A DNA stretch of 64,000 nt from an uncultured delta proteobacterium (GTDB lineage Bacteria > Myxococcota_A > Polyangia > Polyangiales > Polyangiaceae), in the NCBI GenBank assembly GCA_963841435.1, contig CAWJCS010000003.1, positions 576,001 to 640,000 on the forward strand, read 5' to 3'. This document shows, piece after piece, positions 7,958 through 37,596 of this stretch. The translations under genes were made by a program, and so were the position numbers. Numbering within the stretch: the stretch's first letter is position 1; every line of letters starts with the position of its first letter. Under the pieces are notes generated by a model. That model saw only the letters and a program-made list of their open reading frames with translations, was not told where the DNA came from and searched no databases.

Positions 7958-8119
7958 GATGCCAGCCTCGAAAACACCCGATTGGTTGCACGCCTACATC
8001 GGCCCCGGTCATCAAGGCGCTCCTAGCCGCTAGGCTCGGTCGATTTCCTGGCTGGCGGAGGCCCCGACCGGCAACTTTCCTGGAAGACACCTCGAGCTCC
8101 GCTCGCATCCATACCGACC

Positions 8120-19877: not shown

Positions 19878-19902
19878 TACGGCTCCAGGGCGCCGCGGTT
19901 AC
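19878..19902 (-). promoter_or_regulatory. Putative ECF sigma promoter GTAACC-N15-CGTA
   Basis: Exact motif 22 nt upstream of the SDR ATG; identical to the site at 33035-33059. Confidence 0.65.
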
Positions 19903-19980: not shown

Positions 19981-20005
19981 GAAACCGCGGAGGCGAGCGC
20001 TCGTA
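19981..20005 (+). promoter_or_regulatory. Putative ECF sigma promoter GAAACC-N15-CGTA
   Basis: Exact motif upstream of the GMC gene; identical to the site at 33075-33099. Confidence 0.65.
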
Positions 20006-21630: not shown

Positions 21631-21636
21631 GTACCG

Positions 21637-21662
21637 GTAACCGCAGAGCTTCAGGAAACGTT
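21637..21662 (+). promoter_or_regulatory. Putative ECF promoter variant GTAACC-N16-CGTT
   Basis: Lies in the short gap directly before ATG 21672 of the glucosidase. Confidence 0.45.
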
Positions 21663-21671
21663 GAGGATCAC

Positions 21672-24416
21672 ATGTCACACGAGCACGGCCGAGTACTTTC
21701 GGAGATCAAGAACCTGACGAAGGGGGCGAGCGACCCGGAAACCCAGCGCCTGGGCGAGGACGGTCGCCGCGAGAAGAATTGGAAGCGCTTCGGCCCGTAC
21801 TTGAGCGAGCGCCAGTGGGGCACCGTGCGCGAGGACTACTCGGAGCACGGCAACTGCTGGGACTACTTCCCGCACGAGCACGCCCGCAGCCGCGCCTACC
21901 GCTGGGGCGAGGATGGCCTGTTCGGTTTCTCGGATCGCCAGGCGCGGCTCTGCTTTTCGCTCGCGCTTTGGAACGAGCGCGACCCGATCCTCAAGGAGCG
22001 CCTGTTCGGCCTCACGGGGCCCGAAGGCAACCACGGCGAGGACGTGAAGGAGCTCTACTATTACCTCGACGCCACGCCGACCGCCTCCTACCTCAGGGGC
22101 CTGTACAAGTACCCGCAGGCCGAGTACCCGTACCGCCGGCTCGTGGAAGAGAATCGCTCGCGTGGCAAGCACGAGCACGAGCTCGAGCTCATCGACACGG
22201 GCGCGCTCGACGCCGATCGCTACTACGACGTGTTCGTCACCTACGCGAAGGCGGAGCCCGAGGACGTGCTCGTCGAGATCACGATCGCCTCTCGCTCCGA
22301 CGAGGCGGCCCGCCTGCACGTCCTACCGACGCTGTGGTTCCGCAACACGTGGAGCTTCGGCAGCGACGCCGCGGGCACGGACGACGCGTCGGGCGCGCGC
22401 CCCACGCTTCGCGCCAACGCGGCAACGAGCCTCGACGTCTCGCACCCCGAGCTCGGCGAGTACGAGCTCTTCTTCGAGCCCCGCGCGGAGCTCCGCGAGC
22501 TCGTCTTCACCGAGAACGAGACGAACAACGAGAAGCTCTTCGGCGTGCCATCGGCCACGCCGTACACCAAAGACGCTTTCCACCGCCGCGTCGTGAACGG
22601 CGAGGTCGAGGCCACGAACCCGGCGCGAACGGGCACGAAGGCCGCCGCCTGGTACGTGCTCGAGCTCGGCCCGAAGGAGACCGTGACGCTCCGAGCGCGC
22701 CTCAGGCGCCGGGGCTCGAGCCCGCTCGTCGAGGCCTTCGGCCCGGGCTTCGATCGCGTCGTCGAGGCGCGACGCGAGGAGGCCGACCGATTCTACGAGG
22801 GGGTCCACCCCGAGGCGCAGTCCGCCGAGGAGCGCCGCGTCGCGCGTCAGGCGTACGCCGGGCTCGTGTGGTCCAAGCAATTTTACCACTACGCCGTCAA
22901 GACGTGGCTCGAGGGCGACCCCGGGCAGCCCACACCGCCCGGCTCGCGACACTACGGCCGCAACGACGATTTTCGGCACGTGTACTGCCGGGACGTCATC
23001 TCGATGCCCGACAAGTGGGAGTACCCGTGGTTTGCCGCCTGGGACCTCGCCTTTCACATGATCCCCTTCGCGAAGATCGATCCCGAGTTCGCCAAGCAGC
23101 AGCTCATCCTCTTCTTGCGCGAGTGGTACATGCACCCGAACGGTCAGATCCCGGCGTACGAGTTCGCGCTCTCGGACGTGAACCCACCGGTCCACGCCTG
23201 GGCGGTGTGGCGCGTGTACAAGATGACGGGGCGCCGCGGCGAGCGCGACAGGGTCTTTTTGGCGCGCGCCTTCCAGAAGCTGCTCCTGAACTTCACGTGG
23301 TGGGTGAACAGGAAGGACGTCGAGGGCAACAACCTGTTTTCAGGCGGCTTTTTGGGCCTCGACAACATCGGCGTGTTCGACCGCTCGCAGCCCCTGCCGA
23401 CGGGCGGGCACCTCAAGCAAGCCGACGGCACGGCGTGGATGGCCTTCTACTCGGCGACGATGCTCTCGATGGCCCTCGAGCTCGCCGACGGCGACCCCGC
23501 CTACGAGGACGTCGCTTCCAAGTTCTTCGAGCACTTCGTGACGATCGTCGATTCGATGAACCGCTTCGGCGGCACGGGCCTGTGGGACGACGGCGACGGC
23601 TTCTATTACGACCAGCTGTCGCTCGACGGGCAGACGATTCCCCTTCGCACGCGCTCGATGGTCGGCGTGCTCCCCATCATCGCCGTCGAGATCCTCGAAG
23701 ACCACGTGATCGACAAGCTTTCGGGATTCAAGAAGCGCATGCAATGGTTCTTGGACAACCGAAAGGATCTCGCGGAGCACATCCCGTACCAGGAGCTCGC
23801 GAGCGGGAGCCACGGCCACCGTTTGCTCGCTGTCCCCTCGCGCGAGCGTCTCGAACGCGTTCTCCGCTACGTGCTCGACGAGAGCGAGTTCTTGTCACCG
23901 CACGGCCTACGCTCGCTGAGCCGCGTTCACAAGGACGACCCCTATCGCTTCTATTCGCACGGGGCGGAGCACCGTGTCGAATATGCCCCAGGCGACTCGA
24001 CCACCGGGCTTTTCGGCGGCAATTCGAACTGGCGAGGCCCGGTCTGGTTCCCGCTGAACTACCTCGTCGTCGAGGCGCTCGAGCGCTATCATCACTATTA
24101 TGGTGATTCGTTCCGGGTCGAATGCCCCACCGGCTCGGGAGTATTCATGAATCTCGGCGAGGTCGCGAACGAGCTTTCGGCGCGTCTGTCCAGCATCTTC
24201 TTGCCGGGCGAGGGCGGGCGCAGGCCATGCCACGGCTCCGAGTCGCGCTACGCCTCCGATCCTCACTTCAAGGAGCTCGTGCTGTTCCACGAGTACTTTC
24301 ATGGCGAGGACGGGCGGGGCGTCGGCGCGAGCCACCAGACGGGTTGGACGGCACTCGTCGCCCGGGCCATCGAGGCGCTCGCGCACGGCCGCAGCGCGAA
24401 GGAGCGTGCAGCGTGA
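21672..24416 (+). CDS. GH63/MGH1-like glucosidase
   Basis: WKRFGPYLSERQWGTVREDYS, SRAYRWGEDG, SMPDKWEYPWFAAWDLAFH, GFLGLDNIG, GGNSNWRGPVW and GASHQTGWT motifs; GAGG RBS. Confidence 0.92.
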   Translation: MSHEHGRVLSEIKNLTKGASDPETQRLGEDGRREKNWKRFGPYLSERQWGTVREDYSEHGNCWDYFPHEHARSRAYRWGEDGLFGFSDRQARLCFSLALWNERDPILKERLFGLTGPEGNHGEDVKELYYYLDATPTASYLRGLYKYPQAEYPYRRLVEENRSRGKHEHELELIDTGALDADRYYDVFVTYAKAEPEDVLVEITIASRSDEAARLHVLPTLWFRNTWSFGSDAAGTDDASGARPTLRANAATSLDVSHPELGEYELFFEPRAELRELVFTENETNNEKLFGVPSATPYTKDAFHRRVVNGEVEATNPARTGTKAAAWYVLELGPKETVTLRARLRRRGSSPLVEAFGPGFDRVVEARREEADRFYEGVHPEAQSAEERRVARQAYAGLVWSKQFYHYAVKTWLEGDPGQPTPPGSRHYGRNDDFRHVYCRDVISMPDKWEYPWFAAWDLAFHMIPFAKIDPEFAKQQLILFLREWYMHPNGQIPAYEFALSDVNPPVHAWAVWRVYKMTGRRGERDRVFLARAFQKLLLNFTWWVNRKDVEGNNLFSGGFLGLDNIGVFDRSQPLPTGGHLKQADGTAWMAFYSATMLSMALELADGDPAYEDVASKFFEHFVTIVDSMNRFGGTGLWDDGDGFYYDQLSLDGQTIPLRTRSMVGVLPIIAVEILEDHVIDKLSGFKKRMQWFLDNRKDLAEHIPYQELASGSHGHRLLAVPSRERLERVLRYVLDESEFLSPHGLRSLSRVHKDDPYRFYSHGAEHRVEYAPGDSTTGLFGGNSNWRGPVWFPLNYLVVEALERYHHYYGDSFRVECPTGSGVFMNLGEVANELSARLSSIFLPGEGGRRPCHGSESRYASDPHFKELVLFHEYFHGEDGRGVGASHQTGWTALVARAIEALAHGRSAKERAA

Positions 24417-26381
24417 GTCATCCGCTTCCGGTTCAACGACGTAACGGAGTGGCTGGAAGCAGACGGCCTCGGTGGCTTCGCGAGCGGCACCACGTCGGGC
24501 GTTCGCACGCGGCGCTACCATGCGCTCCTGCTCGCCGCGGCGAATCCACCTGCTGATCGGCGCGTGCTCGTGCAGAGCTTCGTGGCAAAGCTCGTCACGC
24601 CCCAAGGCACAGCCGAATTCTGGCCCCAGATTTACGCTGGCGGCTGGCTCAGCGGTCGCGACGTGACGCGCGTCGAGTTCACGCGCGACCCTTGGCCCAG
24701 CTGGCGCTTCGAGACCCCGCTCGGCGGCGTCGTGGTCGAGCTCTTCGTCGTGCACGAGAGCCCGACCGTCGTGCTCTCCTTCCGGCTCGAAAAGCCCGTG
24801 CCTGGAGCGCGCCTCGAGGTGCGCCCGCTCATGTCGGGGCGTGATTTCCACTCGGCGCATCACGAGAACAACTCGTTCCGGAGCGGCGCCGAGCGCTTCG
24901 GCGAGGCGCTGCGTTTCGAGCCGTACCCCGGGGTGCCCGCCGTGCTCTGCCTCGCCAACGGCGAATACCGGCACGACCCGGATTGGTACCGCAATTTCTA
25001 CTACACCGAGGAGGCGGCGCGCGGTCTCGATGCGACCGAGGACCTCGCGAGCCCGGGCGTTCTCGACTTCGACATCGGCGCGCGCGAAGCGCTCTGGGTG
25101 CTCGCTGCCGATCTCGCGGGTGCGCCCGAGCTCGGCAATACGAGCGCCGAGAAGCTCGTGGAGCGCCTGCGCCGCGCGGAGCGCACTCGCCGCGCGGCTT
25201 TCCCGAGTGTGCTCGAGCGCGACGCGAACGCTTATCGCGTACGCCGCGGCGACGGCACGACGCTCATCGCCGGCTACCCCTGGTTCGGCGACTGGGGCCG
25301 CGACACCTTCATCGCGCTGCGCGGCCTGTGCCTCGCGACGGGCGACCTTTCGACCGCGCGCTCCATCATCCGCGAATGGGCCGGCGTCGTCTCGGAGGGC
25401 ATGCTCCCGAACCGCTTCCCCGACGACGCGAGCGCCGAGGCCGAGTACAACTCCGTCGACGCCTCGCTGTGGTTCGTGCTCGCGGCCAACGAGCTGCTCG
25501 CGCACCCTCGCGCGCACGAGCACCTGGCGGGCTCGGATCGAAACCGCATCGAAACCGCCATCGATCGCATCGTCGAGGGCTACACCAAGGGCACGCGCTA
25601 CGGCATCCGCGCCGACGCAGACGGGCTGCTTTCGGCCGGCGAGCGCGGCGTGCAGCTCACGTGGATGGACGCGAAAGTCGGCGACTGGGTCGTCACGCCC
25701 CGCATCGGGAAGCCCGTCGAGGTCCAGGCGCTGTGGGTGCACGCGCTGCTCGCTGCGGGCCGGCGCGACAGCCGCCACGTGGCCCTCGCGCAGAGTGCGC
25801 GGGTCGCCCTGCAGCAGCGCTTCTGGAATGCCGAGCGCAGCATGCTCTTCGACGTCGTCGACGACGGGCACGTCCGCGGTCGCGTTGACGCGTCGTGCCG
25901 GCCGAACCAAATCTTCGCGGCGGGCGGCCTCCCCTTCACCCTGCTCGACGCCGAGCAGGCGCGACAGGTCGTGGACGCCGTCGAGCGGGAGCTCCTCACG
26001 CCGCTCGGCCTGCGCTCGCTCGAGCGCGATCACCCCGAGTACGTGCCCCGCTACGAGGGCGGCGTCTTCCAGCGCGACGCGGCCTACCACCAGGGCACAG
26101 TCTGGCCCTGGCTCATGGGTCCGTTCGTCGAAGCCTGGGTGAAGAGCCGCGGCAGCACCCGCGCCGCCAGGGCCGAGGCGCACCGCCGCTTCGTGACGCC
26201 GCTCGTCGAGCACCTCGACCGAGCCGGCCTGGGCCACGTGAGTGAGATTGCCGACGGCGACCCACCGCATGCGCCGAGGGGGTGCCCGTTCCAAGCGTGG
26301 TCGTTGTCCGAGCTGATTCGGCTCGAAACGACGGTCCTCGCGGACCTTTCCGGAAGCCAGACGCTCCGCCGGGCCGTATGA
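24413..26381 (+). CDS. Amylo-alpha-1,6-glucosidase (glycogen debranching enzyme), frameshift near 24430
   Basis: EWLEADGLGGFASGT and RTRRYHALL lie upstream of the listed ORF; IAGYPWFGDWGRDTFI, TWMDAK, RPNQIFA, YHQGTVWPW and GCPFQAWS follow. The GTGA-overlap start at 24413 needs one G removed at 24430-24431. Confidence 0.9.
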
Positions 26382-26403: not shown

Positions 26404-27102
26404 ATGAGCCCTACCCCCACCTCCCCGCAGTCCGAGGCCGTCTTCGACGAGGTGCCGGACCCTCTCGCGGGCGTGCCGGCGCCGAGGCTTCCCGACGTGC
26501 GGGCGCCCTCGCGGCGCCCCACGCGCGGGGACCTCGCGCGACGCGGCCGCCTGGCGTTCGTGCTGTCGATTGGCTGGATGGGCGCGGAGCTCGCCTGGTT
26601 CGGGCTGCGGGGCGACCTCGCGCACGTCTCCGGGCGATATCTCCTGCTGATGGTCGGCGCGCCGCTCGTCACGGCGATACTCTGCATCGCGGCGGCGCTC
26701 TCCCACGGTCGGCTCGGCCTCGGCGCGCGCATCGGCGTGCTGTTCGCGGTCGCGACGCTGCCACTCGTCGCGATGGTCGGGGCGGTGCTCGTCACGTCGC
26801 CGGCCGTGCCCGACGGCACGCCGGGCACGCTCGGCGAGAGTGCCTACTGCTTCAACACGACGCTCGGTTTCGCATCACTGCCGCTGCTCGCCGCCGCGTT
26901 CGCTCTGCGGCATGCCTTCGTTTCGCGCGCCGTCTGGCGTAGCGCCGCGCTCGGCGTCGGCGCCGGCCTCGCCGCGGTCGGCCTCGTCAACCTCCACTGC
27001 GATCGCGTCGGGGCGCTGCACCTGATGGTCGGGCACGTCGGCGCCCTCTTCGTCATCGCGCTCGCCGGTGCCGCTCTGCTCTCGTATCAGAGCAGGGTCT
27101 GA
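26404..27102 (+). CDS. NrsF/DUF1109-like multi-TM anti-sigma factor
   Basis: About 6 TM helices; Cys pair and His (AYCF, LHCD...LH..VGH); paralog of 29637..30329. Confidence 0.7.
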   Translation: MSPTPTSPQSEAVFDEVPDPLAGVPAPRLPDVRAPSRRPTRGDLARRGRLAFVLSIGWMGAELAWFGLRGDLAHVSGRYLLLMVGAPLVTAILCIAAALSHGRLGLGARIGVLFAVATLPLVAMVGAVLVTSPAVPDGTPGTLGESAYCFNTTLGFASLPLLAAAFALRHAFVSRAVWRSAALGVGAGLAAVGLVNLHCDRVGALHLMVGHVGALFVIALAGAALLSYQSRV

Positions 27103-27156: not shown

Positions 27157-28794
27157 CTACGGGTTCTCTGCAAGGCGCAGCGTCGCGCCGTACCCAACGT
27201 TGTAGTTCGCTCCGTTGCCGCTCGTCACCTCGAGCACCGCGCCTTGGCCGACGGCGGCGTAGTGACCGGAGTCGTCGGCGCCCTGCTGGTTCGGAGCCCA
27301 ATTATTGCCGACGGCCGAGATGAACGTGGCGTCCGACGTGAGCACGGCGACCCCCGTGGTCGTGGCGCCGAACGTGTTGTTCCCGGGGTCGGCGAGCGTG
27401 CCAAGGTCGAACGTCGAGCCGTCGGCCGCGGCAAGGCGCAAGCTCTCGGTCGCATTTTCGAACGTCGTGCCGCGCACCGTGAGCACGACGAGGTTCGCGC
27501 CGCCCCCGCCGCCAAAGAACCGCGCGCCGAAGGTGTTCGTGTCGTGGAAATTCGAGTCGATGATGTTGATGACCCCGCCATCGCCACTCGAAAACTCGAG
27601 CCCGTCGAACGACATGTCGTAGATCTCGGTGCCGACGATATCGATCTGCGCGGGCGGTGAGCCGTTGATGCCGGTACTGCAACCGTGCAAGAAGGAATCG
27701 CTGATCGAAATCACCCCCGCGGCGTTGGCGTTCGACTGGATGCAAGCGTAGGCGATGGTCGCCGAGGGATCGATCGAGAGGTCGCTGTCGATGATCGAAA
27801 GCGACGGCGCGCCGTTGATCGTGGCAACGCTGTCGCCGAGCGTGACGACGGTGCAGCCGACCAGGCTGGCGACCGACGCATCGTTGAGCAGCAAGAGCGG
27901 ACGGTTGCCGTCCGCCGCCGTGAGATCCGATAGCGCCAGCGCGGCTTGATCGTCCACCGTGAAGGCGGTGGTCCCGACGGGCGAGGTGAAGTGCATGACG
28001 CCACCGCTCACGTTCAACGCCCCGTCGGCGTAGGCGTGACCGAGACTCGGGCAGGTACCCCAATCGTTCGACGTATCGGTCGAGAGCTCCACCTTCGCCT
28101 GCCCGCCGACCTCGAGCGCGCTCGCGCCCGCGTTCGCGCAATTGTCGAACGAGCTGTCGCTGACTCGGACCGTGCCGCTCTTGCCTTCCGCGAGGACGAC
28201 CGTCGCGTAGCCGTCGAAGCGGAGCCCACCGATGTTGGAGCTACCCTTGGCCTCGAGCAGCGTTTCCCCGCTGCCGGAAAGCTTCGCCTGACCCGCATGC
28301 TCGGCGACGAGGTCGACGCCGTCCGCAAGGGAAACGGGGCCGGCCTCCGCGTAGTTGCCGTCGAGCAGCACGATCGTGTCGCCGCTCGTGGCAACGCTCG
28401 CGGCTTTGGCGAGACTCGCGTAGGGATCGTCGCGCGTCGACTTGCCCTGGTCGCTGCCGTTCGTGCCGACGTAAACGCCGTGGAACGGTGCGCCACCGCC
28501 GGCCTCGCCACCTTGGCCAGCTTCGCCAGCAGCGACTCCCGTGCCGCCCGTGGTGCCGCCCGAGCCGCCTCGCCCGCCCGTGACGCCGCTCCCCGCCTCA
28601 CCCCCCGCCGCGGACTCACCCATCCCTCCTTCTCCCGCCATCGTGCCCCGGGTGCCGCCGCCTTTCCCAGCGGCTCCTCCCGTGGTGCCGCCCAAGCCGC
28701 CCGCCGCCGGCGTCTTCGCCCCCTCGTCGTCCCCGCAACCTAGCGCGACACCGACCGCAACCAGAGACACCCAAAAGCAAGACACAAGCCGCAT
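27157..28794 (-). CDS. DUF1565/right-handed beta-helix lipoprotein
   Basis: Lipobox VALGC, Gly-rich linker, YVGTNGSD...PYASLAKA...GDTIVLLDGNY, beta-helix-like repeats and FDLGTLADPGNNTF. Confidence 0.7.
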   Translation of the reverse strand: MRLVSCFWVSLVAVGVALGCGDDEGAKTPAAGGLGGTTGGAAGKGGGTRGTMAGEGGMGESAAGGEAGSGVTGGRGGSGGTTGGTGVAAGEAGQGGEAGGGAPFHGVYVGTNGSDQGKSTRDDPYASLAKAASVATSGDTIVLLDGNYAEAGPVSLADGVDLVAEHAGQAKLSGSGETLLEAKGSSNIGGLRFDGYATVVLAEGKSGTVRVSDSSFDNCANAGASALEVGGQAKVELSTDTSNDWGTCPSLGHAYADGALNVSGGVMHFTSPVGTTAFTVDDQAALALSDLTAADGNRPLLLLNDASVASLVGCTVVTLGDSVATINGAPSLSIIDSDLSIDPSATIAYACIQSNANAAGVISISDSFLHGCSTGINGSPPAQIDIVGTEIYDMSFDGLEFSSGDGGVINIIDSNFHDTNTFGARFFGGGGGANLVVLTVRGTTFENATESLRLAAADGSTFDLGTLADPGNNTFGATTTGVAVLTSDATFISAVGNNWAPNQQGADDSGHYAAVGQGAVLEVTSGNGANYNVGYGATLRLAENP

Positions 28795-28890
28795 CGCGCA
28801 TCGGTAGTTCGGGGGTGACCGCCCGGCAATCCCCGTCGTCTCGAGCGCGTGCTCGCCGGGGCGGGCTGCCCCGAAACGCCCCACGGCGCG

Positions 28891-29499
28891 TCAGCCCAGG
28901 CTGGCCTCGCGTTCGACGGCGCGCCTGAGCTCCTTATACGCGCGGTGGGCGCGCACCTTCACGGTGCTGAGACGTTGGTCGAGCGCGCGCGCCACCTCGG
29001 GGAATGGACGCTCCTCGAGCCAGTGCATCTCGACGACGCGGCGTTGCGCAGGCTTCAGGGACGCGAGGGCCTGCCGTGCGAGGGCGACCTGCGCGGCGCG
29101 GTCCAGCTCCTCGTCTTCGGGGGCGGCGGCCAGCTCGACGGGATCCACGTCGGCGTTCGGACGGCGCTGCTGAGCACGACAGTGGTCCACGCACAGGTTC
29201 ACGACGATGCGCGTGATCCAGGGGCGGAACATGCTGCCAAGCTCGAAGCGATCGCGGGCAACGTGTGCGTTCAGAAACGCCTGCTGCACGAGGTCAGCGG
29301 CAACGTCCTCAGTGCCGACCCGTCGCCGCGCAACGGCGACGAGGTACGGAAACAGCCGCTCATAGAGCGCGTGGAATGCGCCCTGATCGTCGTGCACGAC
29401 GTACGCGAGCGCGAGCTCGTCATCGGAAACCAGCGTGAGATCGGGACGGCCGGGCGCACGTCCAGTGCGCGCGCGCGACCAGGGGCCTGCGTGAATCAT
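28891..29499 (-). CDS. ECF RNA polymerase sigma factor
   Basis: AFHALYER, DLVQQAF, FRPWITRIVVNLCVD and EVARALDQRLSTVKVRAHRAY. Confidence 0.9.
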   Translation of the reverse strand: MIHAGPWSRARTGRAPGRPDLTLVSDDELALAYVVHDDQGAFHALYERLFPYLVAVARRRVGTEDVAADLVQQAFLNAHVARDRFELGSMFRPWITRIVVNLCVDHCRAQQRRPNADVDPVELAAAPEDEELDRAAQVALARQALASLKPAQRRVVEMHWLEERPFPEVARALDQRLSTVKVRAHRAYKELRRAVEREASLG

Positions 29500-29544
29500 G
29501 GAAGATACCCTCGCGTCACCGGGGAGAGGGCCTGAGCCTTCGAA

Positions 29545-29636: not shown

Positions 29637-30329
29637 TCAGGCCCGCGTCACGCGCGAGAGCACCAACGCGCCGAGCAGCGCGCTCGCAATCACGGCGCCA
29701 CCATGGCTGAGCCCCATGTGTAGCGCTCCGGAGAGCGGGCAGCGCAGCATGCTCGTCGTCGAGACGAGCAGCCCCGCGCCGGCGCCGATGAGCGCGCTCT
29801 TGTAAACGGCCGAGGTCGCGAAGGCGTTCCTCAGCGCAAACCCCGCGACGATGAGCGGCACGATGGTGAACGCGAGGGCCATGTTGAAGCAGAACACCCC
29901 GTGCATGAGCTCGCCGAGCGGCGCACCCGGGTAGGGCGGCGAAAAGGCGTAGGCCGACACGGCGAAGGCCACGGGACCGAGCAGTGCGAGGAGAGCCAGC
30001 ACACCCACCCGGAGCCCGAGCCCGAGGCGCCCGGGACTGAGGGCGACGAAGAAACACAGTGCTCCCGCGAGCGCCGGCGCCACGGCGAATCCCAGCGTGT
30101 AGCCGAGCGGCACCTTGGGCATGTCACCCCGGATGCCGATGATCCCGAGCTGCCCGGCGAGCCAGACCGCGCTCACCAGGAGGCCCAGCCAGCGGGTTCG
30201 CCGCAATGTGCCGCGGGCCGGCCCCGCCCCGATCCCAGGGCCGGGAACGGGAGGCGGGAGCAGCTCGGCCGCCCCGAGCGGATCGGGAATCAGGTCGAAA
30301 TCAGGCAGGGCGGAGGGGGGGACGGGCAT
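29637..30329 (-). CDS. NrsF/DUF1109-like multi-TM anti-sigma factor
   Basis: About 6 TMs; VFCF and LRCP...LHMGLSH; directly downstream of an ECF sigma. ATG at 30329. Confidence 0.72.
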   Translation of the reverse strand: MPVPPSALPDFDLIPDPLGAAELLPPPVPGPGIGAGPARGTLRRTRWLGLLVSAVWLAGQLGIIGIRGDMPKVPLGYTLGFAVAPALAGALCFFVALSPGRLGLGLRVGVLALLALLGPVAFAVSAYAFSPPYPGAPLGELMHGVFCFNMALAFTIVPLIVAGFALRNAFATSAVYKSALIGAGAGLLVSTTSMLRCPLSGALHMGLSHGGAVIASALLGALVLSRVTRA

Positions 30330-30342
30330 GGCACCAGGCGGG

Positions 30343-30367
30343 TCACAGGGGACCCCGAAGGCGTTAC
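30343..30367 (-). promoter_or_regulatory. Possible ECF promoter variant GTAACG-N15-GTGA
   Basis: Lies in the gap between the ECF stop and the anti-sigma start. Confidence 0.35.
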
Positions 30368-30387
30368 GGCGCCCGAGCACGTTGGTG

Positions 30388-31023
30388 TCATGAAGATTTT
30401 CGGGCGAGGGGCAGGCGCTCGAGCCTCGTCATTTCCTCACGGATGGCCTCGTAGGCCTGAAACGCCCGGAGCTTCACGGCGTTTTCCGTGGCCCCGAGGA
30501 TTTCCGCCGCGTCGGCGATGCTCATTCCCTCGAACCGGATCAGCACGAACGCCTCACGGCGAGCATCCGACATCTCCGAAAGGGCCCGCTCCACGGCGCG
30601 TGCGGTTTCGCGGGCCAGTACCGTGCTCTCCGCCTCGGCGCCCACGCTCGGCTCGGCAACCACGTCCGTCTCGGCTCCCGCGAGGGGCCGTGGCGCTCGC
30701 CGGCGGGCTCGGGCGCTATCGACGAACACGTTGCGAGCGATGGTGTACGACCACGGCAAGACGGCCGACCCCGGACGAAACGCGCCGCGCCCCTGGTGCA
30801 TGCGGAGCAGGGTGTCCTGGAGCAGGTCCTGCGCAACGTCGTTGGCGCCACAGAGCCGACGTAAAAACCGTTCGAGCCTCGGACCGATCGCCGCGAACAC
30901 CTTGGCGAAGCTGGCGTCGTCGCCGTCGGCATAGCGCGACATCGCAACGTCTACTTCCCCCAACGGTTGGCCGTCGGCGCCTCCGGCCGAGAGCGAAGCG
31001 CTCGTGATCGGCACCGTGCTCAC
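30388..31023 (-). CDS. ECF RNA polymerase sigma factor (SigF/NrsF-type pairing)
   Basis: MSRYADGDDASF, DLLQDTLLRMH, LPWSYTIARN and FEGMSIADAAEILGATENAVKLRAFQAY. Confidence 0.9.
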   Translation of the reverse strand: MSTVPITSASLSAGGADGQPLGEVDVAMSRYADGDDASFAKVFAAIGPRLERFLRRLCGANDVAQDLLQDTLLRMHQGRGAFRPGSAVLPWSYTIARNVFVDSARARRRAPRPLAGAETDVVAEPSVGAEAESTVLARETARAVERALSEMSDARREAFVLIRFEGMSIADAAEILGATENAVKLRAFQAYEAIREEMTRLERLPLARKSS

Positions 31024-31075: not shown

Positions 31076-33022
31076 TCAGCTCCGTATCGCCCCCGTCGGC
31101 GTCACGAGCACGAGACCGTGCGCACCCTGTCCGAGCGGCGGCGCGGGCGGCGGAGCCGAGGTTTCCCTCGGTTCGGCAGCGGCGGCGCCGGTCGCGTGGT
31201 CGGCGTGGTCCGCGTGGTCGTGGCTCGCGTCGGCTTCGAGCCGTTCGCGAGTGGCGTGGATTTGCGAGCTCGAGCGCTCGACGAAAAGATCGAGCGTCCA
31301 GTCGAGCACGACGCGCACCTTGTTGCCGAAGCCGACGAGCTTTCCGAGATAGAGGGTGCGCCACACCACCCACGCCAAAAAGCCGCTCAGCCGCACACCG
31401 ACCAGGCGCACCGCCGCGAACTGGTGCCCCACGCTCACGAGCTGACCGAAGTCGAAGTAGCGAAACGGCTCGGTGCCCTCGCCGCGCAGCAACCGCGCGA
31501 TGTTCCGCGCCGTCTGGGAGCCTTGCTGGAACGCCACCTGCCCGAGCGGCGGCAGCGGGCGGCCGTCCTTGCCCTTGTACGTCGCCGCGTCACCGAGCAC
31601 GAACACGTTCGGGTGCGCGGGCACCCGGCAGTCGGCGTCCACCTCGACGCGCCCCGCGCGGTCGAGGGCGAGACCCGTGCGCTCCAGCAACGGCGACGCC
31701 TTGACGCCTGCACACCAGCACGTCGTGCGTGCCTCGAGGCAGGTCCCGTCGGCGAGGCGAACCCAATCGGTCCCGATCTCGCTGACGCGCGCACCGTGCA
31801 GCACGCGCACGCCGAGTCCGCCGAGCTGCGTCTCGGCGCTCGTCGCCACGGCCGCGTGCCAACCACCGAGGACACGCTGCCCCGAGTCGACCAAGATCAC
31901 GTCGATGAGCGACGCGTCGAGCTCCGGGTAGCGCGGCAGGAGCACCTCGTTGACGAGGTCCTTGACCTCGGAGGCGACCTCGACGCCCGTCGGACCAGCG
32001 CCGACGACGACGAACCTGAGCATCTTCTTCTTGAGCTCGAGATCCGGCTCGCGCGCGGCCGTCTCGAAGCTGTCGATGATGTGATTCCTGAGCGCAATCG
32101 CATCGCCGAGCTCGCGCATCATGAACGCGCGGTCGCTGCCCTTCGTGCCGAAGGTCTGCGTCGTCGAACCCGGCGCGAGCACGAGGTAATCGAACGGCGT
32201 CTCGTCGTGGCGCACGCGAAGCTCCCCGCTCGAAACGTCGGCATCGACATCGACCTTGGACACCACGACGCGCCTCGCGAGGTCGATGTGCTCGACCGTC
32301 TCCTTCTTGAAACGCACGTTCGTGGCCTCGAAGATGCGCCGAAACGGGTACGTGACCTGCCGTGTTTCGATCGCCCCCACGGCGACACTCGGCAGGAGCG
32401 GCGGGAACAGAAAGTAGTTCTTCTTGTCGATGACCGTAAGCTCGAGGCGCTCGCTGTAGCCGAGCTCGCGGTCGAGGCCGACGGCCGTGTAGAGCCCCGC
32501 GAACCCGCCGCCGACGATCACGACGCGCACGGGCTTCTCGGGCGGCGAGGGCCAGTTGCGGCGCCGCCACATCGCCAGAAGCGGCGCTCCGATGAGGTAA
32601 CCGAAGAGCCCCGTGAGCCCGAGCACCACGACGCCAAGCGCCATCCGCGCCGGAGCGAAGACCGGGACGACGAGCCAAAAGAGAACGTCGAGCCCCGCGA
32701 GCGCGCTCGCGACGACGAACAGGGCCCGGCGGCTCAGGCGGGGCAGCGGCATGTGCCGGATCAACGCGAGCGTCACGGGCAGGATGACGAGCAGCGAGAG
32801 TAGGTGGGCGAGAAAGAGCCCGGCACGAAGCGTGGGGCTCAGCATCGAAAGACGAACGCCGAAGTCGAGCAGCGTTCCCAGGGAGAGCCCCCAGTTGACC
32901 GCCGTCACCGACACCACCCATCCGAGCCCGAATAGCGTGAACGCGACGAGCAGCACGCTGGAGAGCAGAAGCTTCGTCCAGACGGCCAGGTTTCTGAGCG
33001 TGTAAACGTTGCGGCGGGCCAT
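31076..33022 (-). CDS. ndh: Type II NADH dehydrogenase-like FAD oxidoreductase with extra N-terminal membrane domain
   Basis: VVIVGGGFAG, LFPPLLPSVAVG, FDYLVLAPGS, VVGAGPTGVE, WCAGV, VFVLGD and GFLAWVVWR; about 150-aa hydrophobic N-terminal extension. Confidence 0.85.
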   Translation of the reverse strand: MARRNVYTLRNLAVWTKLLLSSVLLVAFTLFGLGWVVSVTAVNWGLSLGTLLDFGVRLSMLSPTLRAGLFLAHLLSLLVILPVTLALIRHMPLPRLSRRALFVVASALAGLDVLFWLVVPVFAPARMALGVVVLGLTGLFGYLIGAPLLAMWRRRNWPSPPEKPVRVVIVGGGFAGLYTAVGLDRELGYSERLELTVIDKKNYFLFPPLLPSVAVGAIETRQVTYPFRRIFEATNVRFKKETVEHIDLARRVVVSKVDVDADVSSGELRVRHDETPFDYLVLAPGSTTQTFGTKGSDRAFMMRELGDAIALRNHIIDSFETAAREPDLELKKKMLRFVVVGAGPTGVEVASEVKDLVNEVLLPRYPELDASLIDVILVDSGQRVLGGWHAAVATSAETQLGGLGVRVLHGARVSEIGTDWVRLADGTCLEARTTCWCAGVKASPLLERTGLALDRAGRVEVDADCRVPAHPNVFVLGDAATYKGKDGRPLPPLGQVAFQQGSQTARNIARLLRGEGTEPFRYFDFGQLVSVGHQFAAVRLVGVRLSGFLAWVVWRTLYLGKLVGFGNKVRVVLDWTLDLFVERSSSQIHATRERLEADASHDHADHADHATGAAAAEPRETSAPPPAPPLGQGAHGLVLVTPTGAIRS

Positions 33023-33034
33023 GTCGCCGGGTGG

Positions 33035-33059
33035 TACGCGGGCGGCCGCCGGCGGTTAC
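33035..33059 (-). promoter_or_regulatory. Putative ECF promoter GTAACC-N15-CGTA
   Basis: 12 nt upstream of the ndh ATG, heading the ndh-ECF-antisigma run. Confidence 0.65.
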
Positions 33060-33074
33060 CGCTTCACTTTGTGG

Positions 33075-33099
33075 GAAACCGGGGCCCGGGTCCGCCGTA
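33075..33099 (+). promoter_or_regulatory. Putative ECF promoter GAAACC-N15-CGTA
   Basis: Upstream of the doxX-precursor-DUF692-DUF2063 operon. Confidence 0.65.
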
Positions 33100-33177
33100 G
33101 GGGATGCGACGCCGCGAGCACTCGTCGCTCGCACGGTCGATTCGAAATGCCCCGTTTCGGGGTGAGAGGAGCTCGTC

Positions 33178-33681
33178 GTGGATGCCTCACATTGGCTCGC
33201 ACGCGCGCCCAAGCGCGCCTTGGATTTGCTGAAGAAGGTGGAATTTACCGGGCCGCTCCTGGCCCGCATCACGCTCGGCGTGCTCTTCATGAGCACCGGT
33301 TGGGGCAAGGTGCACTCGCTCGACAAGGTGACCGCGTTCTTCATGGACCTCGGTATCCCCGCGCCGGGCTTCCATGCGCACCTCGTGAGCTTCGTCGAGC
33401 TCATCGGTGGTGGGCTCCTACTCGTCGGGCTCGCGTCCCGCCTCGCCGCCCTGCCGCTCATCGTCTCGATGGCCGTGGCGATCGTCACCGCGCAGCGCGA
33501 AGACGTGCACGGCCTGGCGGATCTGTTCGGCCTCGTCGAGTGGACGTACCTCGCGCTCTTGTTCTGGATCGCGGTCGCGGGCCCCGGCAAGGCCTCGCTC
33601 GATCACCTGCTCACGTCGCGCCGCTCTGGCACGCGCGCCGAGCCCAAGACGAATGCCGAGCTTTCCGCGAAGACCACGTAA
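33178..33681 (+). CDS. DoxX family membrane protein (BufD-like)
   Basis: LLARITLGVLFMSTGWGK, ELIGGGLLLVGLASR and GPGKASLD. Confidence 0.9.
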   Translation: MDASHWLARAPKRALDLLKKVEFTGPLLARITLGVLFMSTGWGKVHSLDKVTAFFMDLGIPAPGFHAHLVSFVELIGGGLLLVGLASRLAALPLIVSMAVAIVTAQREDVHGLADLFGLVEWTYLALLFWIAVAGPGKASLDHLLTSRRSGTRAEPKTNAELSAKTT

Positions 33682-33729
33682 GGCTCGGGATCTCGAACCG
33701 TAACCGAAAGAAAGAAGGAGAACCAACTC

Positions 33730-33963
33730 ATGACCTCGATCCTGATGGCGGCCGCAATCTCTGGCATCGTGAGCGGCGCAGAGCAGACCGAAACCAGCAT
33801 GCGCTCAGCCAACGCGTTCGGCGCGCAGAGGCTCGCCGACGGCGCCGGCAAGCACAGCTGCAAAGGCAAGAACGCTTGCAAGGGCCAGGGCGGCTGCAAG
33901 ACCGACAAGCACGCCTGCAAAGCCCAGAACGCTTGCAAGGGGCAGGGTGGCTGCAAGGGCTGA
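33730..33963 (+). CDS. Cys-rich MNIO RiPP precursor (bufferin BufA2-like)
   Basis: Strong AAGGAG RBS; hydrophobic N-terminus; six Cys in two repeats (KHSCKGKNACKGQGGCK / KHACKAQNACKGQGGCK); directly upstream of DUF692. Confidence 0.85.
   Translation: MTSILMAAAISGIVSGAEQTETSMRSANAFGAQRLADGAGKHSCKGKNACKGQGGCKTDKHACKAQNACKGQGGCKG
33850..33960 (+). repeat. 57-bp (19-aa) tandem duplication in the precursor core
   Basis: Unit 1 starts at 33850 and unit 2 at 33907; both contain AACGCTTGCAAGGG and GGCTGCAAG. Confidence 0.85.
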
Positions 33964-33985
33964 GCCCCGCCCGGGAGTAACCCGG

Positions 33986-34840
33986 GTGGTCGCGGACTCC
34001 GCGGCCGCCCGGGGACACTTCCCCGAGCTCGGCGTGGGCGTCGGTCTTCGCACCACGCACTTCGCCGAGATCCTCGAGACGGCGCCCGACGTCAACTTCT
34101 TCGAGGTGCTGAGCGAAAACTTCATGTACACGTCGGGGCGTCCGCTCGAATTTCTGGACGCCATCGCCGAGCGCTATCCGCTCGTGATGCACGGCGTGTC
34201 GCTGTCGATAGGCTCGAGCGATCCTCTGGATTTCCGCTATCTGGCCGAGCTCAAGGCGCTCCGAGACCGGATTGGCGCGTCGCTCGTGTCCGATCACTTG
34301 TGCTTCACGGGCGTGCTCGGAAAGAACCTGCACGACCTCCTGCCTCTGCCGCTCACCGAGGAAGCCCTCCACCACGTCGCTTCCCGCGTTCGAACCGTCC
34401 AGGACTATCTCGGGGCGCCGATCGCGCTCGAGAATCCGTCCACCTACGTCGAATTCGCTGGCTCGACGTTGCGTGAATGGGAGTTCTTGTCTGCGCTCAC
34501 CGCCGAGACGGGCGCGCTCTTGTTGCTCGACGTGAACAACGTCCACGTGAGCGCTTACAACCACGGGTTCGATGCGCACGAGTACCTGCGCGGCATTCCG
34601 ATGGAGCGGGTCGCGCAGTTTCACGTCGCGGGTCACACGCACTACGGCACGCACATCATCGACAGTCACGTCGGTCCCGTGCCGGACCCCGTGTGGCATC
34701 TGCTCGCCGAGGCCGGCGCGCTCGGGGCCCGAGCGCCCGTGCTGCTCGAGTGGGACGCAGAGATTCCACCGTTTTCCGTCGTGCACGCCGAGGCGCGACG
34801 TGCCGAGCGCTACCTTTTGCCCGAGGCCGGTGCGGCATGA
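33986..34840 (+). CDS. DUF692 multinuclear non-heme iron-dependent oxidase (MNIO, BufB-like)
   Basis: GVGLR, FEVLSENF, HGVSLSIG, SDHLCF, HDLLPLP, LENPSTY, LLDVNN, FHVAGH, IDSH and LLEWD. Confidence 0.95.
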   Translation: MVADSAAARGHFPELGVGVGLRTTHFAEILETAPDVNFFEVLSENFMYTSGRPLEFLDAIAERYPLVMHGVSLSIGSSDPLDFRYLAELKALRDRIGASLVSDHLCFTGVLGKNLHDLLPLPLTEEALHHVASRVRTVQDYLGAPIALENPSTYVEFAGSTLREWEFLSALTAETGALLLLDVNNVHVSAYNHGFDAHEYLRGIPMERVAQFHVAGHTHYGTHIIDSHVGPVPDPVWHLLAEAGALGARAPVLLEWDAEIPPFSVVHAEARRAERYLLPEAGAA

Positions 34841-35691
34841 TGTCGAGCCCCCCGCTCGCCACGCTACAGGCGTGGTTCGCCGCCGTCACCACGAATCCGC
34901 GTGGCGTCGAAGCCGGGATCGCCGACGCCGAGCGCGGCATCTCCCTCGGGGCCGACAACGAGCTCGGCCTCCTCAGGCTCGTCACGAAGGGTCCGGCGCT
35001 TTCCGCGCTCGACCGCCTCGCGATTTACCACGCCGGCTACCACGCGCGTCTCGTCGAGTGCCTCCTCGACGACTACCCGGCCGTGGCACATTGGCTGGGC
35101 GAGGACGAATTCGCGGCGCTCGCGCGGTCGTACATTTTCGCGAACCCGTCACGCTCACCGAGCCTGAACCGCTTCGGCGAGCGCTTCGCGGAGCACTGCC
35201 GTGGGCAACCCGGCACGTGGGGCGCCTTCGCCGCCGATCTCGCGCGACTCGAGTGGGCGATCGTGGAAGCCATCCACGCCCCCTCCCCCGCACCGCTCGA
35301 TCGCAGCGTCATCTTCGGCGTACCCGAAGACGCCTGGGCGACGACCCAGCTCGTGCCGAGCCCATCGCTCCGACTCGTGCGCTCGGAGTACCCGGTGAAC
35401 GACTACTACGTCGCCTTTCGCGAGGGCTCCGACCCGGACCCGCCGAGCCGCGCCGCGAGCGCCACGGCGGTGCTCCGGAAAGGCCAGGCCGTCTGGCGCT
35501 ACGACCTCCCTCCTCGCATGGCCGACCTCCTCCAAGAGCTGATGCGCGGCACACCGCTCGGCGTGGCGCTCGGTGCGCTCGAAGGTCGCATCCACGATCA
35601 CGAGGGTCTCCTCGCACTGCGTCGCCAGCTATCCGAATGGTTCGCGACCTGGGTCGAATCGAGCTTCTTCGCGGGCGTCCGACGGACCTAA
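34837..35691 (+). CDS. DUF2063 MNIO partner protein (BufC-like)
   Basis: ATGA overlap with DUF692; RLAIYHAGYHARL, YPAV..LGEDEF, SRSPSLNRFG and DLARLEWA. Confidence 0.88.
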   Translation: MMSSPPLATLQAWFAAVTTNPRGVEAGIADAERGISLGADNELGLLRLVTKGPALSALDRLAIYHAGYHARLVECLLDDYPAVAHWLGEDEFAALARSYIFANPSRSPSLNRFGERFAEHCRGQPGTWGAFAADLARLEWAIVEAIHAPSPAPLDRSVIFGVPEDAWATTQLVPSPSLRLVRSEYPVNDYYVAFREGSDPDPPSRAASATAVLRKGQAVWRYDLPPRMADLLQELMRGTPLGVALGALEGRIHDHEGLLALRRQLSEWFATWVESSFFAGVRRT

Positions 35692-35785
35692 TCCCCACGA
35701 CGAACGCCCAGCACGCGCCAGCCGATTCGGCCCACCACGCCAGAAGCAAGCGCTGGCAACCCGCGGCCCCGCTCGCGAACACCCC

Positions 35786-36256
35786 CTATTTGCGCACGAT
35801 GAACACCGAGCAATGCGACTTTCGCATCAACGTCTCGGCAATCGACCCGAGCAGGAGACGCTCGAGCCCCGCACGGTCGTCGGTGCCGATCACGAGCACG
35901 TCCGCCTTGAGCTCCCCCACGGTGCGCAGGACCTCGCCCGTGGGGTCACCCACGAGGAAATGCCCGGTCACCGTGTTCCGGCACTGCGCGCGCGCCGCGC
36001 GAACGTGCGCTTCGAGGTGCTCCTTCGAATCCTCGAGCGCGGCGCCGCTGGTCTCGGTGGACCAGGAGTGACCACGTTCGAAGCGGCTCGTCCGGAAGAC
36101 GTGAAGGATGTGGACGTTCGCCTCGGGTAGCGCGCGGGCGAGACGGGCCGCCATCGACACGATGCGCTTGCTCGCGAGGGAGCTGTTGACGGCGGCAACG
36201 ATCACTTCGGGCTCTTCGCCCGTGTTCTGGAGGGGCGGCAGTTCGCTCTCGGTCAC
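35786..36256 (-). CDS. Universal stress protein
   Basis: VHILHV, GDPTGEVL, ADVLVIG and LLLGSIAETLMRKSHCSVFIV. Confidence 0.88.
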   Translation of the reverse strand: MTESELPPLQNTGEEPEVIVAAVNSSLASKRIVSMAARLARALPEANVHILHVFRTSRFERGHSWSTETSGAALEDSKEHLEAHVRAARAQCRNTVTGHFLVGDPTGEVLRTVGELKADVLVIGTDDRAGLERLLLGSIAETLMRKSHCSVFIVRK

Positions 36257-36321
36257 GACCCGGCCTCCAAAACGATTGGCTCAGGAGAAAATTGGATGCT
36301 CATCTTGCACCATCCGTTGCT

Positions 36322-37596
36322 TCAGCGCTCGAGCAATACGAAAGCCAGGGTCAAGACCAGGTGTACCGGCAACATCGCAAAAAACGCAAATACTGCGTAC
36401 CGAACGAAGCTCGGTAGAGTGTACCCCGACCGTTCGGCGATTGCCTTGACCATGAGGTTCGGCCCGTTGCCGATGTACGTGGTGGCGCCCATCACCACGG
36501 CGCCGGCGCTGATGGCAGCGAGCTTGAGCGGCTCGATCCCCGCGACGAGGTCGGGCAAACCGTGCCCGAGACCGCGCGCCAGGGCGGCGAAGGCGGCGTA
36601 GGTGGGCGCGTTGTCGAGCAGCGCGGAGAGCGAACCCGCCGCCCAGAACATCTGCCAGGCCTGCTGGATGGGCATCTCGGGTGCGCGTACGGCAAGCTCC
36701 TTCTCGATGGGCACGAGGCAGACGAACAGGCCGACGAAGAGCACCGCGACCTCGAGAATCGGTCCGAAGCTGAAGCCATTGAGCTTTCGCACCTCGTGCT
36801 TGGTCGTGAAGTAGGCCGCGGCACCGATGCCGAGCATCGCGACCTCACGGACGACGTGGGGGAGGAAGGCAGCACCAATCACGGCGAGCAGCCAGAGGAG
36901 GTTCGTCGACCCCTGCAGCGAAATCGGCTTCTTTTCGGCGCGGTCGAGCGCGAGCGCCTCGGCGGTTTCCTTCTTGTACGCGCGCCGGTCGAACACGTAG
37001 AGCGCCACGGCGAAGAAGGCCACGTACAGGAACCAGACGGGGAAGAGGCGCAGCGTCCAGAAGAACGGCACGCCGCTCACGAAGCCGACGAGTAACGGCG
37101 GATCACCGAGCGGGGTCAGCATGCCGCCCGCGTTGGCGACACCGAGAATGAAGAAGGGCACGAGGTGCGCGGTGTGCGCGCGCTGCGAGTTGGTGCGGAG
37201 GAACGGCCGGATCAGCAGCATGCTCGCGCCGGTGGTTCCGATGAGACTCGCGAGCAACGAGCCAATCAGCAAGAAGGTGACGTTCGTCCGCGGTGTCGCC
37301 TCGAGATCGCCGGTGGCGTAGACACCGCCCGCCGCGATGAACAGCGCACCGAGCGTGCTGATGAAAGTGACGTAGCCGGACACCGCATGCATGACCTCTT
37401 CGTGCTGGCCGTGCAGGACGAGGTAACCGACCACTGGGCTCGCGCAGGCGAGCACGACGAGCCCCTGGAACCAGTGATGCTCCCAGGCGTGAGGAAGCAC
37501 CAGGGGCAGCACCGCCATGCCGAGCACGAGCGCCACGAAGGGCGACATCGTCCACATCGGCAGGGTTTCGACGGCGGCGTGAGAGAGCTCGTGCAA
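36322..37596 (-). CDS. Sodium:proton antiporter / IT-superfamily permease (CitMHS_2-like)
   Basis: Multi-TM; IGTTGASMLLIRP, ANAGGMLTPLGDPPL, LDNAPTY and GATTYIGNGPNLMVK. Start uncertain. Confidence 0.85.
   Translation of the reverse strand: MHELSHAAVETLPMWTMSPFVALVLGMAVLPLVLPHAWEHHWFQGLVVLACASPVVGYLVLHGQHEEVMHAVSGYVTFISTLGALFIAAGGVYATGDLEATPRTNVTFLLIGSLLASLIGTTGASMLLIRPFLRTNSQRAHTAHLVPFFILGVANAGGMLTPLGDPPLLVGFVSGVPFFWTLRLFPVWFLYVAFFAVALYVFDRRAYKKETAEALALDRAEKKPISLQGSTNLLWLLAVIGAAFLPHVVREVAMLGIGAAAYFTTKHEVRKLNGFSFGPILEVAVLFVGLFVCLVPIEKELAVRAPEMPIQQAWQMFWAAGSLSALLDNAPTYAAFAALARGLGHGLPDLVAGIEPLKLAAISAGAVVMGATTYIGNGPNLMVKAIAERSGYTLPSFVRYAVFAFFAMLPVHLVLTLAFVLLER

Follow-up and report, generated by a model that had tools for sequence, protein, structure and literature searches.

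The stretch considered here comprises 64,000 nucleotides of DNA from an uncultured delta proteobacterium of the family Polyangiaceae (assembly GCA_963841435.1, contig CAWJCS010000003.1, positions 576,001 to 640,000 of the forward strand) and is hereafter called the window. It carries a candidate cluster for a peptide synthesized by ribosomes and modified post-translationally (RiPP), in which the genes for a DoxX-family membrane protein, a six-Cys precursor peptide, an MNIO (DUF692) enzyme and a DUF2063 protein form one tightly packed operon on the + strand (33178-35691; Table 1). An earlier interpretation made from the letters alone (the sequence-only reading) had placed doxX, a 77-residue precursor, DUF692 and DUF2063 in a single operon, and all four genes were recovered at its coordinates and on the + strand, with the Pfam matches given in Table 1. 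The third-position GC content of the four genes lies between 0.82 and 0.88, as for real genes.

The precursor gene is preceded by a ribosome-binding site (AAGGAG, 33715-33720). The N-terminus of the peptide, MTSILMAAAISGIVSGA, is well defined, because an in-frame TAA (33679-33681) lies upstream of the ATG with no ATG, GTG or TTG in between. The longest open reading frame (ORF) of the MNIO gene extends from 33947 to 34840; within it the likely start is the GTG at 33986, behind GGGAG at 33973-33977, which would leave 22 nt between the precursor stop and the MNIO start. The ATG of the DUF2063 gene at 34837 overlaps the MNIO stop (ATGA). Against NCBIfam HvfX the DoxX protein scored 69.5 bits, under the cutoff of 80. 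A scan of 32900-36400 for sigma-70 promoters returned no promoter-like site, terminator-like sites in the same interval numbered five against 2.0 expected, none of them at a gene end delimiting the operon, and Rfam at gathering thresholds gave no match in the whole window.

Table 1. Features of the candidate cluster and of its upstream neighbourhood, in window coordinates.
Feature	Position	Strand	Evidence
DoxX-family membrane protein (BufD/HvfX-like), first operon gene	33178..33681	+	Pfam DoxX 70.9 bits; third-position GC 0.88
77-residue precursor, Buf2-type (Cys-Lys)	33730..33963	+	NCBIfam BufA2 39.1 bits, E 6.6e-10, cutoff 60
Core half-repeat 1, KHSCKGKNACKGQGGCK; Cys44, Cys50, Cys56	33850..33900	+	self-comparison, Tandem Repeats Finder
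Core half-repeat 2, KHACKAQNACKGQGGCK; Cys63, Cys69, Cys75	33907..33957	+	self-comparison, Tandem Repeats Finder
MNIO (DUF692) maturase, BufB type	33986..34840	+	MNIO_BufB 341.3 bits; Pfam PF05114 344 bits
DUF2063 partner (BufC / PME type 1)	34837..35691	+	Pfam DUF2063 70.7 bits, cutoff 27.2
Promoter-like motif GAAACC-N15-CGTA (extracytoplasmic function type, SigF-like), 79 nt before DoxX start	33075..33099	+	motif scan
Second SigF-like motif GTAACC-N15-CGTA, 13 nt before NDH-2-like ORF	33035..33059	-	motif scan
NDH-2-like flavoprotein, divergent from operon	31076..33022	-	Pfam Pyr_redox_2 144.6 bits; NDH2_C 26.8 bits, just under cutoff
Extracytoplasmic function sigma factor, candidate regulator	30388..31023	-	Pfam Sigma70_r2, Sigma70_r4_2; NCBIfam sigma70-ECF 63.6 bits, cutoff 42.9
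NrsF-family anti-sigma factor	29637..30380	-	Pfam NrsF 26.8 bits, exactly at cutoff

The precursor is built as MTSILMAAAISGIVSGA, a 23-residue linker and then KHSCKGKNACKGQGGCK-TD-KHACKAQNACKGQGGCK-G. Residues 1-17 are hydrophobic, resemble a signal or leader segment and end in SGA; residues 18-40 form a variable linker, and residues 41-77 the six-Cys core, in which every Cys is followed by Lys, nine Lys occur in 37 residues and NACKG appears twice. The two half-repeats agree at 14 of their 17 residues and at 45 of their 51 bases, and Tandem Repeats Finder gave a period of 57 nt with 2.0 copies, 87% matches and a score of 177, which bears out the earlier description of a tandem-duplicated, Lys-rich six-Cys core. 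The accompanying statement that the ORF stops directly at the last Cys was mistaken, the ORF ending in Cys-Lys-Gly-stop. A second period of 18 nt was detected at 33847-33938 (4.9 copies, 66% matches), corresponding to a six-residue C-K-G-x-x-x sub-period beneath the three-Cys unit.

Relatives of the precursor were sought in protein sets clustered at 90% (E ≤ 0.01) and at 50% (E ≤ 0.001). The first search yielded 2344 homologues among 2452 candidates and the second 1141 representatives; relatives are also encoded in no fewer than 520 genome stretches. All locus counts below refer to the best 80 of these genome loci (L001 and so on), with the window added where stated. Grouped from their record titles, they include about 40 from Acidobacteriota, 11 from Verrucomicrobiota, 4 from Planctomycetota, 23 that are myxobacterial and 2 labelled Pseudomonadota. 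The spacing C-x5-C-x5-C-x6/7-C-x5-C-x5-C is present in all 81 precursors (window plus 80 loci), some relatives (P0006, P0034, L042, L049) contain 9 or 12 Cys, and A8, A9, G12, G16, H42, C44, N48, C50, K51, G52, G54, C56, C63, N67, C69, G71, G73, G74 and C75 are invariant in a 38-sequence alignment. It is therefore hard to keep to the idea that the 77 codons are a chance ORF of GC-rich DNA. Such DNA does spawn spurious ORFs (73 of at least 40 residues in 9 kb), but the precursor has a third-position GC of 0.86, like its neighbours, a strong ribosome-binding site ahead, and thousands of conserved homologues in conserved synteny; the conservation already refutes the idea, to which we give practically no chance.

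BufA2 is the sole NCBIfam family matched by the window precursor. It is also the best family for 150 of the 150 best representative homologues, and 15 of 15 locus precursors drawn from four phyla match it. Six conserved core Cys are present, as the definition of Buf2 requires (PMC12452194); in that survey, Buf2 (formerly BUF_6/12Cys) has six conserved Cys in 90% of its members and twelve in the rest. A second study gives BufA2 as an example of the "Cys-Lys" captophorin precursor group and lists NACKG among the common 5-mers (PMC13097082). The duplicated core, which the sequence-only reading had called atypical, is accordingly the normal signature of Buf2, found in 81 of 81 precursors. Nor is the precursor type specifically myxobacterial, as had been supposed, because its loci span Acidobacteriota, Verrucomicrobiota and Planctomycetota besides Myxococcota. 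Among the 120 matches listed, the five named NCBI entries are all called "hypothetical protein".

Other precursor classes were considered and rejected. Pfam gave no match to the precursor at E ≤ 0.01, DUF2282 included, and this, together with six Cys instead of four, removes a DUF2282 (Buf1) precursor. The EGKCG/oxazolin type was discarded for want of any EGKCG in the sequence, the CxxxxC family because the spacing here is C-x5-C, and a methanobactin precursor because BufA2 is the only NCBIfam match and the enzyme falls far under the MbnB cutoff.

The MNIO passes the curated MNIO_BufB cutoff of 310 bits and stays under those of HvfB (255.4 against 360 bits), MbnB (48.6 against 325), ApyH and ChrH; it matches PDB entry 3bww with an E-value of 1.4e-45. 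Judged by gene content, gene order and homology, the operon is probably a bufferin 2-type (Cys-Lys captophorin) biosynthetic cluster, at a probability of roughly 0.8. With an MNIO over the BufB cutoff and a precursor that matches BufA2 only, the earlier recognition of a bufferin-type MNIO/DUF2063/DoxX RiPP operon is supported. The system is a somewhat divergent member of the described bufferin 2 family, not a new kind. By analogy with that family, the iron enzyme most likely turns the Cys-rich peptide into a copper-binding compound.

The proposed course of events begins with an extracytoplasmic function (ECF) sigma factor of the SigF kind, which would be held by NrsF until metal or oxidative stress and, once freed, would transcribe doxX-bufA-bufB-bufC from a GWAACC-N15-CGTA promoter. 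The MNIO-DUF2063 complex would then bind the precursor, probably via the conserved hydrophobic N-terminal segment, and oxidise core Cys to 5-thiooxazoles, at -4 Da each. Sec would export the peptide, cleavage after Ser-Gly-Ala17 would leave a 60-residue product, and this product would buffer periplasmic copper. By analogy with Caulobacter Buf2, a disulphide would join Cys44 and Cys75 while Cys50, Cys56, Cys63 and Cys69 would be modified. In the original work Buf2 chemistry comprises -4 Da on each of the four Cys in the middle, a disulphide linking Cys I to Cys VI, absorbance at about 305 nm and protection against copper (PMC11626156), and the 5-thiooxazole has been assigned across the Cys-Lys/captophorin enzyme group (PMC13097082). 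The bufferin authors regard the signal peptide as part of what BufB-BufC recognises. That A8, A9, G12 and G16 are invariant across four phyla is unusual for a mere signal peptide and fits such recognition.

Several findings weigh against this assignment. The search with precursor profile models that the sequence-only reading had proposed came out divided: BufA2 was indeed the sole match, but the window precursor remained under its curated cutoff (NF050166; 39.1 against 60 bits). The same applies to 129 of the 150 representatives, all 21 that reach the cutoff having two or three matched stretches, that is, more Cys units, and to 14 of the 15 locus precursors, the lone passer being a 12-Cys form. 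The DUF2063 protein matches NCBIfam HvfC weakly (41.1 bits, cutoff 142) and has no PDB sequence match at E ≤ 0.01. AlphaFold2, run on the precursor with the 38-sequence alignment, predicted no secondary structure (mean predicted local distance difference test score, pLDDT, 49.7; predicted template modelling score, pTM, 0.15), a model too poor for a fold search and not evidence for disorder, whereas the Buf2 models in the literature are folded. Sec export is not assured, because the hydrophobic segment is preceded by neither Lys nor Arg. In L001-L004, whose precursors are the closest relatives (65-70% identity), DoxX is directly upstream but neither MNIO nor DUF2063 is nearby. The presumed catalytic Asp of the window MNIO is followed by Ala-Glu, whereas in 49 of 66 related MNIOs another Asp follows it. 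To judge by the profile scores, the precursor is part of a coherent and large branch whose relation to BufA2 is clear, although it lies below the NCBI equivalog threshold.

Among known systems the closest is Bufferin 2 of Caulobacter vibrioides (buf2ABC, encoding BufA2, BufB2 and BufC2), also known as Buf2, BUF_6/12Cys or Cys-Lys captophorins. In both, the six-Cys precursor begins with a hydrophobic segment, and genes for MNIO and DUF2063 come after it; Lys follows every Cys, the window precursor matches BufA2 alone and the window MNIO exceeds the BufB cutoff. SigF-type control is known in Caulobacter and predicted for the window. Unlike Bufferin 2, the window precursor falls below the BufA2 cutoff and has a tail of two residues; owing to this short tail its match stops at position 62 of the 79 in the profile. 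Tails of 2-3 residues past the last Cys characterise the myxobacterial clade, compared with 8-13 in most Acidobacteriota; in that phylum Ala, not the Lys of the window, comes after the last Cys. The half-repeats are also nearly identical, sharing 13-17 of 17 residues in the myxobacterial group (mean 15.1, n = 22); the Acidobacteriota (n = 40) and the Verrucomicrobiota (n = 11) both show 9-12 shared residues, and the Planctomycetota (n = 4) 10-13. Moreover, the window lacks a basic n-region, Ala-Glu replaces Asp next to the presumed catalytic Asp of its MNIO, and its doxX stands first in the operon, whereas Caulobacter buf2 has no doxX. From these comparisons the myxobacterial peculiarity is at the level of the clade, consisting of near-identical halves, a two-residue tail, an uncharged N-terminus, the Ala-Glu of the MNIO and doxX in first place.

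Bufferin 1 (buf1ABCD with sigF-nrsF and DUF2282) shares the MNIO, DUF2063, DoxX and the neighbouring ECF sigma and NrsF genes. Its product is a periplasmic copper-binding peptide with 5-thiooxazoles (PMC12452194; PMC11626156). Unlike it, the window precursor is without DUF2282, has six instead of four Cys and has no predicted fold. The oxazolin, fontiphorin and gonophorin systems (EGKCG, Lys-Cys captophorins; HvfABC) resemble the window in a PME-1-dependent MNIO, repeated Cys motifs and often DoxX, and their precursors bear a signal peptide; in the window, by contrast, the repeat is C-K instead of K-C-G, EGKCG is absent and the HvfB score is far from its cutoff. A NACKG substrate was left unprocessed by FonBC (PMC13097082). 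In methanobactin (MbnA/MbnB/MbnC), as is predicted for the window, an MNIO turns Cys residues of a ribosomally made peptide by oxidation into a ligand for copper, but the partner is of another type, the precursor has no signal peptide and an oxazolone-thioamide for copper uptake is formed. Among the literature matches listed, no paper was dedicated to myxobacterial bufferins; the term "bufferin" also matches "buffering", and absence from print is not claimed.

The same enzymes could reach another outcome, as the sequence-only reading had surmised for modification pattern and metal preference, with all six Cys converted and no terminal disulphide, or with a metal other than copper bound, and here the enzyme itself is of interest. 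Its motif LLEWDAEIPPF occupies residues 253-263. After the conserved Glu, the window and 14 loci read W-D-A-E, a single locus reads W-D-A-D and two read W-D-A-H; the reading is (W/R)-D-D-x in 49 of 66. Cys-Lys MNIOs are reported to have an Asp next to the catalytic Asp, and a model puts the substrate Lys against it (PMC13097082). Together with the alignment to 3bww, in which E-R-D-F stands opposite E-W-D-A of the window, that report suggests that the window Ala takes the position of BufB2-Asp251; the Asp next to the catalytic Asp is a logo feature and no strict definition, and the window MNIO differs in it. A quick maximum-likelihood tree places the 16 A-E/A-D rows together in a single group (Shimodaira-Hasegawa-like approximate likelihood ratio test, SH-aLRT, 84), within a split from the enzymes of Acidobacteriota and Verrucomicrobiota that has a support of 99; the window MNIO is nearest to L005, L006 and L008. 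Besides this altered pocket, such an outcome would be in keeping with the x-C-K-G/A context that the six myxobacterial Cys share in halves that are 13-17/17 identical, where Acidobacteriota have Ala next to the last Cys instead, with the short C-terminal tail and, weakly in view of the low confidence, with the failure of AlphaFold2 to predict a fold joining Cys44 and Cys75. We nonetheless hold it to be unlikely: the precursor and the MNIO are clearly homologous to the Buf2 set, the mapping onto BufB2-Asp251 is drawn from a published passage and the 3bww alignment, and, as regards another metal, the promoter and NrsF context is tied in Caulobacter to copper as well as to other heavy metals.

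The N-terminal segment raises a different question, that of export. The sequence-only reading had noted a hydrophobic N-terminus without a basic n-region, and MTSILMAAAISGIVSGA indeed contains no Lys and no Arg ahead of or within its hydrophobic stretch, so that of a Sec or lipoprotein signal only the hydrophobic stretch and the SGA end are present. In the comparison of 80 precursors, basic residues before the hydrophobic segment are lacking in ten (the window, L001, L002, L003, L008, L017, L020, L038, L061 and L069), the nine locus precursors (of 79) all being of the myxobacterial type. This would suit a peptide that is not secreted, the segment serving as an MNIO leader or an uncleaved anchor, with a cytoplasmic or inner-membrane role alongside DoxX; no alternative start codon lies upstream to supply a charged N-terminus, and doxX is directly upstream in the same operon. 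Such a role seems distinctly improbable, however, as the other 70 of the 80 carry 1-4 Lys or Arg there in a segment that is otherwise alignable, the close relative L004 starts with MKSTLM, the Ser-Gly-Ala end follows the small-x-small pattern, and 14 of 22 myxobacterial paralogues have, by a crude test, a lipoprotein-like Cys soon past the hydrophobic stretch.

Gene order across the relatives agrees with the bufferin 2-type assignment in most loci. MNIO lies directly downstream on the same strand in 63 of the 75 loci that have at least 1500 nt past the precursor, 3 kb away in one and nowhere in 11, and its start is seen in all five loci with shorter downstream sequence; DUF2063 follows the MNIO in most. 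DoxX, detected by tblastn with the window protein (E ≤ 1e-3), stands after the DUF2063 gene in 43 loci, the order bufABCD, ahead of the precursor on the same strand in six (L001-L006), as in the window, and upstream on the other strand in six, and was undetected by this search in 25. The 11 loci without a neighbouring MNIO, which include L001-L004 with DoxX kept directly upstream, raise the possibility that the peptide acts unmodified, as a Cys/Lys-rich metal or redox buffer paired with DoxX, the MNIO pair being dispensable. Many precursor genes are unlinked to MNIO genes in the published survey as well (PMC12452194). Against this stand the linkage in 63 of 75 loci and the window itself, where only 22 nt separate the precursor stop from the MNIO start and the end of the MNIO gene overlaps the beginning of the DUF2063 gene, so that we rate an unmodified peptide as very improbable. 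Modification in trans is possible too, because one metagenome-assembled genome (MAG) holds both the orphan L009 and the complete L038. These are two contigs of one MAG record set, L009 with an orphan precursor behind a promoter motif and L038 with a complete locus of lipoprotein-type precursor, MNIO and DUF2063. Polyangia may thus keep two paralogous precursor types, one of them modified in trans.

Transcription of the operon is predicted to depend on a SigF-like ECF sigma promoter. The motif G(T/A)AACC-N15-CGTA emerged when the window was aligned with the sequences that lie upstream of DoxX in L001-L006. Four sites occur in the 64 kb against 0.07 expected, a number reached in none of 100 shuffles, and allowing one mismatch to GTAACC-N15-CGTA returned the same four sites (0.75 expected). 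Two of them lie back to back in the 155-nt divergent region between DoxX and the NDH-2 ORF. The motif stands upstream of DoxX in L001, L002, L004, L005 and L006, with a near variant, GTAACT-N15-CGTA, in L003; altogether 11 of the 80 loci carry it, all myxobacterial, and in nine of these it is upstream of DoxX or the precursor. In L008 (Polyangiales) it was seen at 6278-6302 (+), between the precursor, ending at 6258, and the MNIO, from about 6580. The Caulobacter SigF site is GTAACC-N16-CGAA (PMC3511200), which the window motif resembles with slightly different spacing and -10 element, and SigF/NrsF governs both Caulobacter buf operons when metals cause stress (copper as well as other heavy metals). 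The features of such a regulon are present in the window, where an ECF sigma and an NrsF gene are close by and a SigF-like motif precedes the operon. NrsF relatives likewise adjoin the precursor loci L001, L002, L004, L005, L006 and L034. This sets the window apart from the Buf2 clusters of the published survey, in which sigma and NrsF genes are reported in Buf1 and not in Buf2 clusters (PMC12452194).

The gene divergent from the operon encodes an NDH-2-like protein with a hydrophobic N-terminal extension of about 160 residues, the Pfam flavoprotein match starting at residue 166. Relatives 65-71% identical to it adjoin DoxX in L001, L002 and L004, and in L004 the motif (5261-5285, -) lies ahead of NDH-2, as in the window. 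E. coli NDH-2 has reportedly been discussed as a cupric reductase. Because the window motif is only 13 nt before the ORF, its position suggests that the NDH-2 transcript is perhaps leaderless. In L001 the order over 4952-9346 is NDH-2 (-), DoxX, precursor, NrsF, sigma-54 activator and ECF sigma, and a second promoter motif occurs just ahead of NrsF.

Elsewhere in the window, the other two motif sites form a second back-to-back pair (19878-19902, -, and 19981-20005, +) between genes resembling an SDR/glucose-1-dehydrogenase (18995-19855, -) and a GMC oxidoreductase (20049-21410, +). Past the GMC gene the + run continues with GH63-like (21627-24416) and glycogen-debranching-like (24564-26381) genes and a second NrsF gene (26404-27102). 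This arrangement points to a broader regulon under the same sigma factor. Two ECF sigma and two NrsF genes are found within 5 kb (26404-27102, +; 28909-29535, -; 29637-30380, -; 30388-31023, -); the identity between the two copies is 41% for NrsF and 30% for the sigma factor. ARAGORN reported an 88-nt tRNA-Asp at 27751-27838 (+), inside the ORF 27157-28884 (-); no tRNA was found by Rfam at its gathering threshold, and the call is probably spurious.

The class of copper-handling RiPPs made up of bufferins and captophorins is very large and was recognised recently; to its concept the present locus adds little. What it points to is a soil-bacterial branch (Myxococcota, Acidobacteriota, Verrucomicrobiota and Planctomycetota; 1141 representative clusters) that falls below the curated BufA2 cutoff. 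In the genome table of the survey, the five Polyangia rows consulted list no Buf2 precursor, with MNIO in four and DUF2063 in three: Sorangium cellulosum has five MNIO and three DUF2063, Labilithrix luteola two and two, Sandaracinus amylolyticus three and one, Haliangium ochraceum three and none, and Polyangium aurulentum none of either (PMC12452194). Because these rows list MNIO and DUF2063 but no Buf2 precursors, the precursors of this branch may be under-counted; Sorangium and Labilithrix MAG loci do carry them (L013, L055). In addition, SigF/NrsF control, published beside Buf1 and not Buf2 clusters, is here predicted for a Buf2-type cluster with a recognisable motif.

A more far-reaching proposal, which we regard as speculative and rather unlikely, is that the myxobacterial Buf2 would be a distinct subtype, whose homogenised units, minimal tail and uncharged N-terminus co-evolved with a changed MNIO pocket (Asp to Ala-Glu), as a result of which all six Cys undergo conversion or another metal is bound, and which is joined with DoxX and a membrane-anchored NDH-2 in a SigF/NrsF-controlled envelope redox and metal module, the DoxX-precursor core persisting also without an MNIO in cis. 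The replacement of Asp by Ala-Glu in the MNIO, together with homogenised substrate repeats, offers a natural test case for the idea, put forward in print, that this position reads the residue after the Cys. The Buf2 kind is already known, and it is the traits specific to this clade that are worth a biochemical look.

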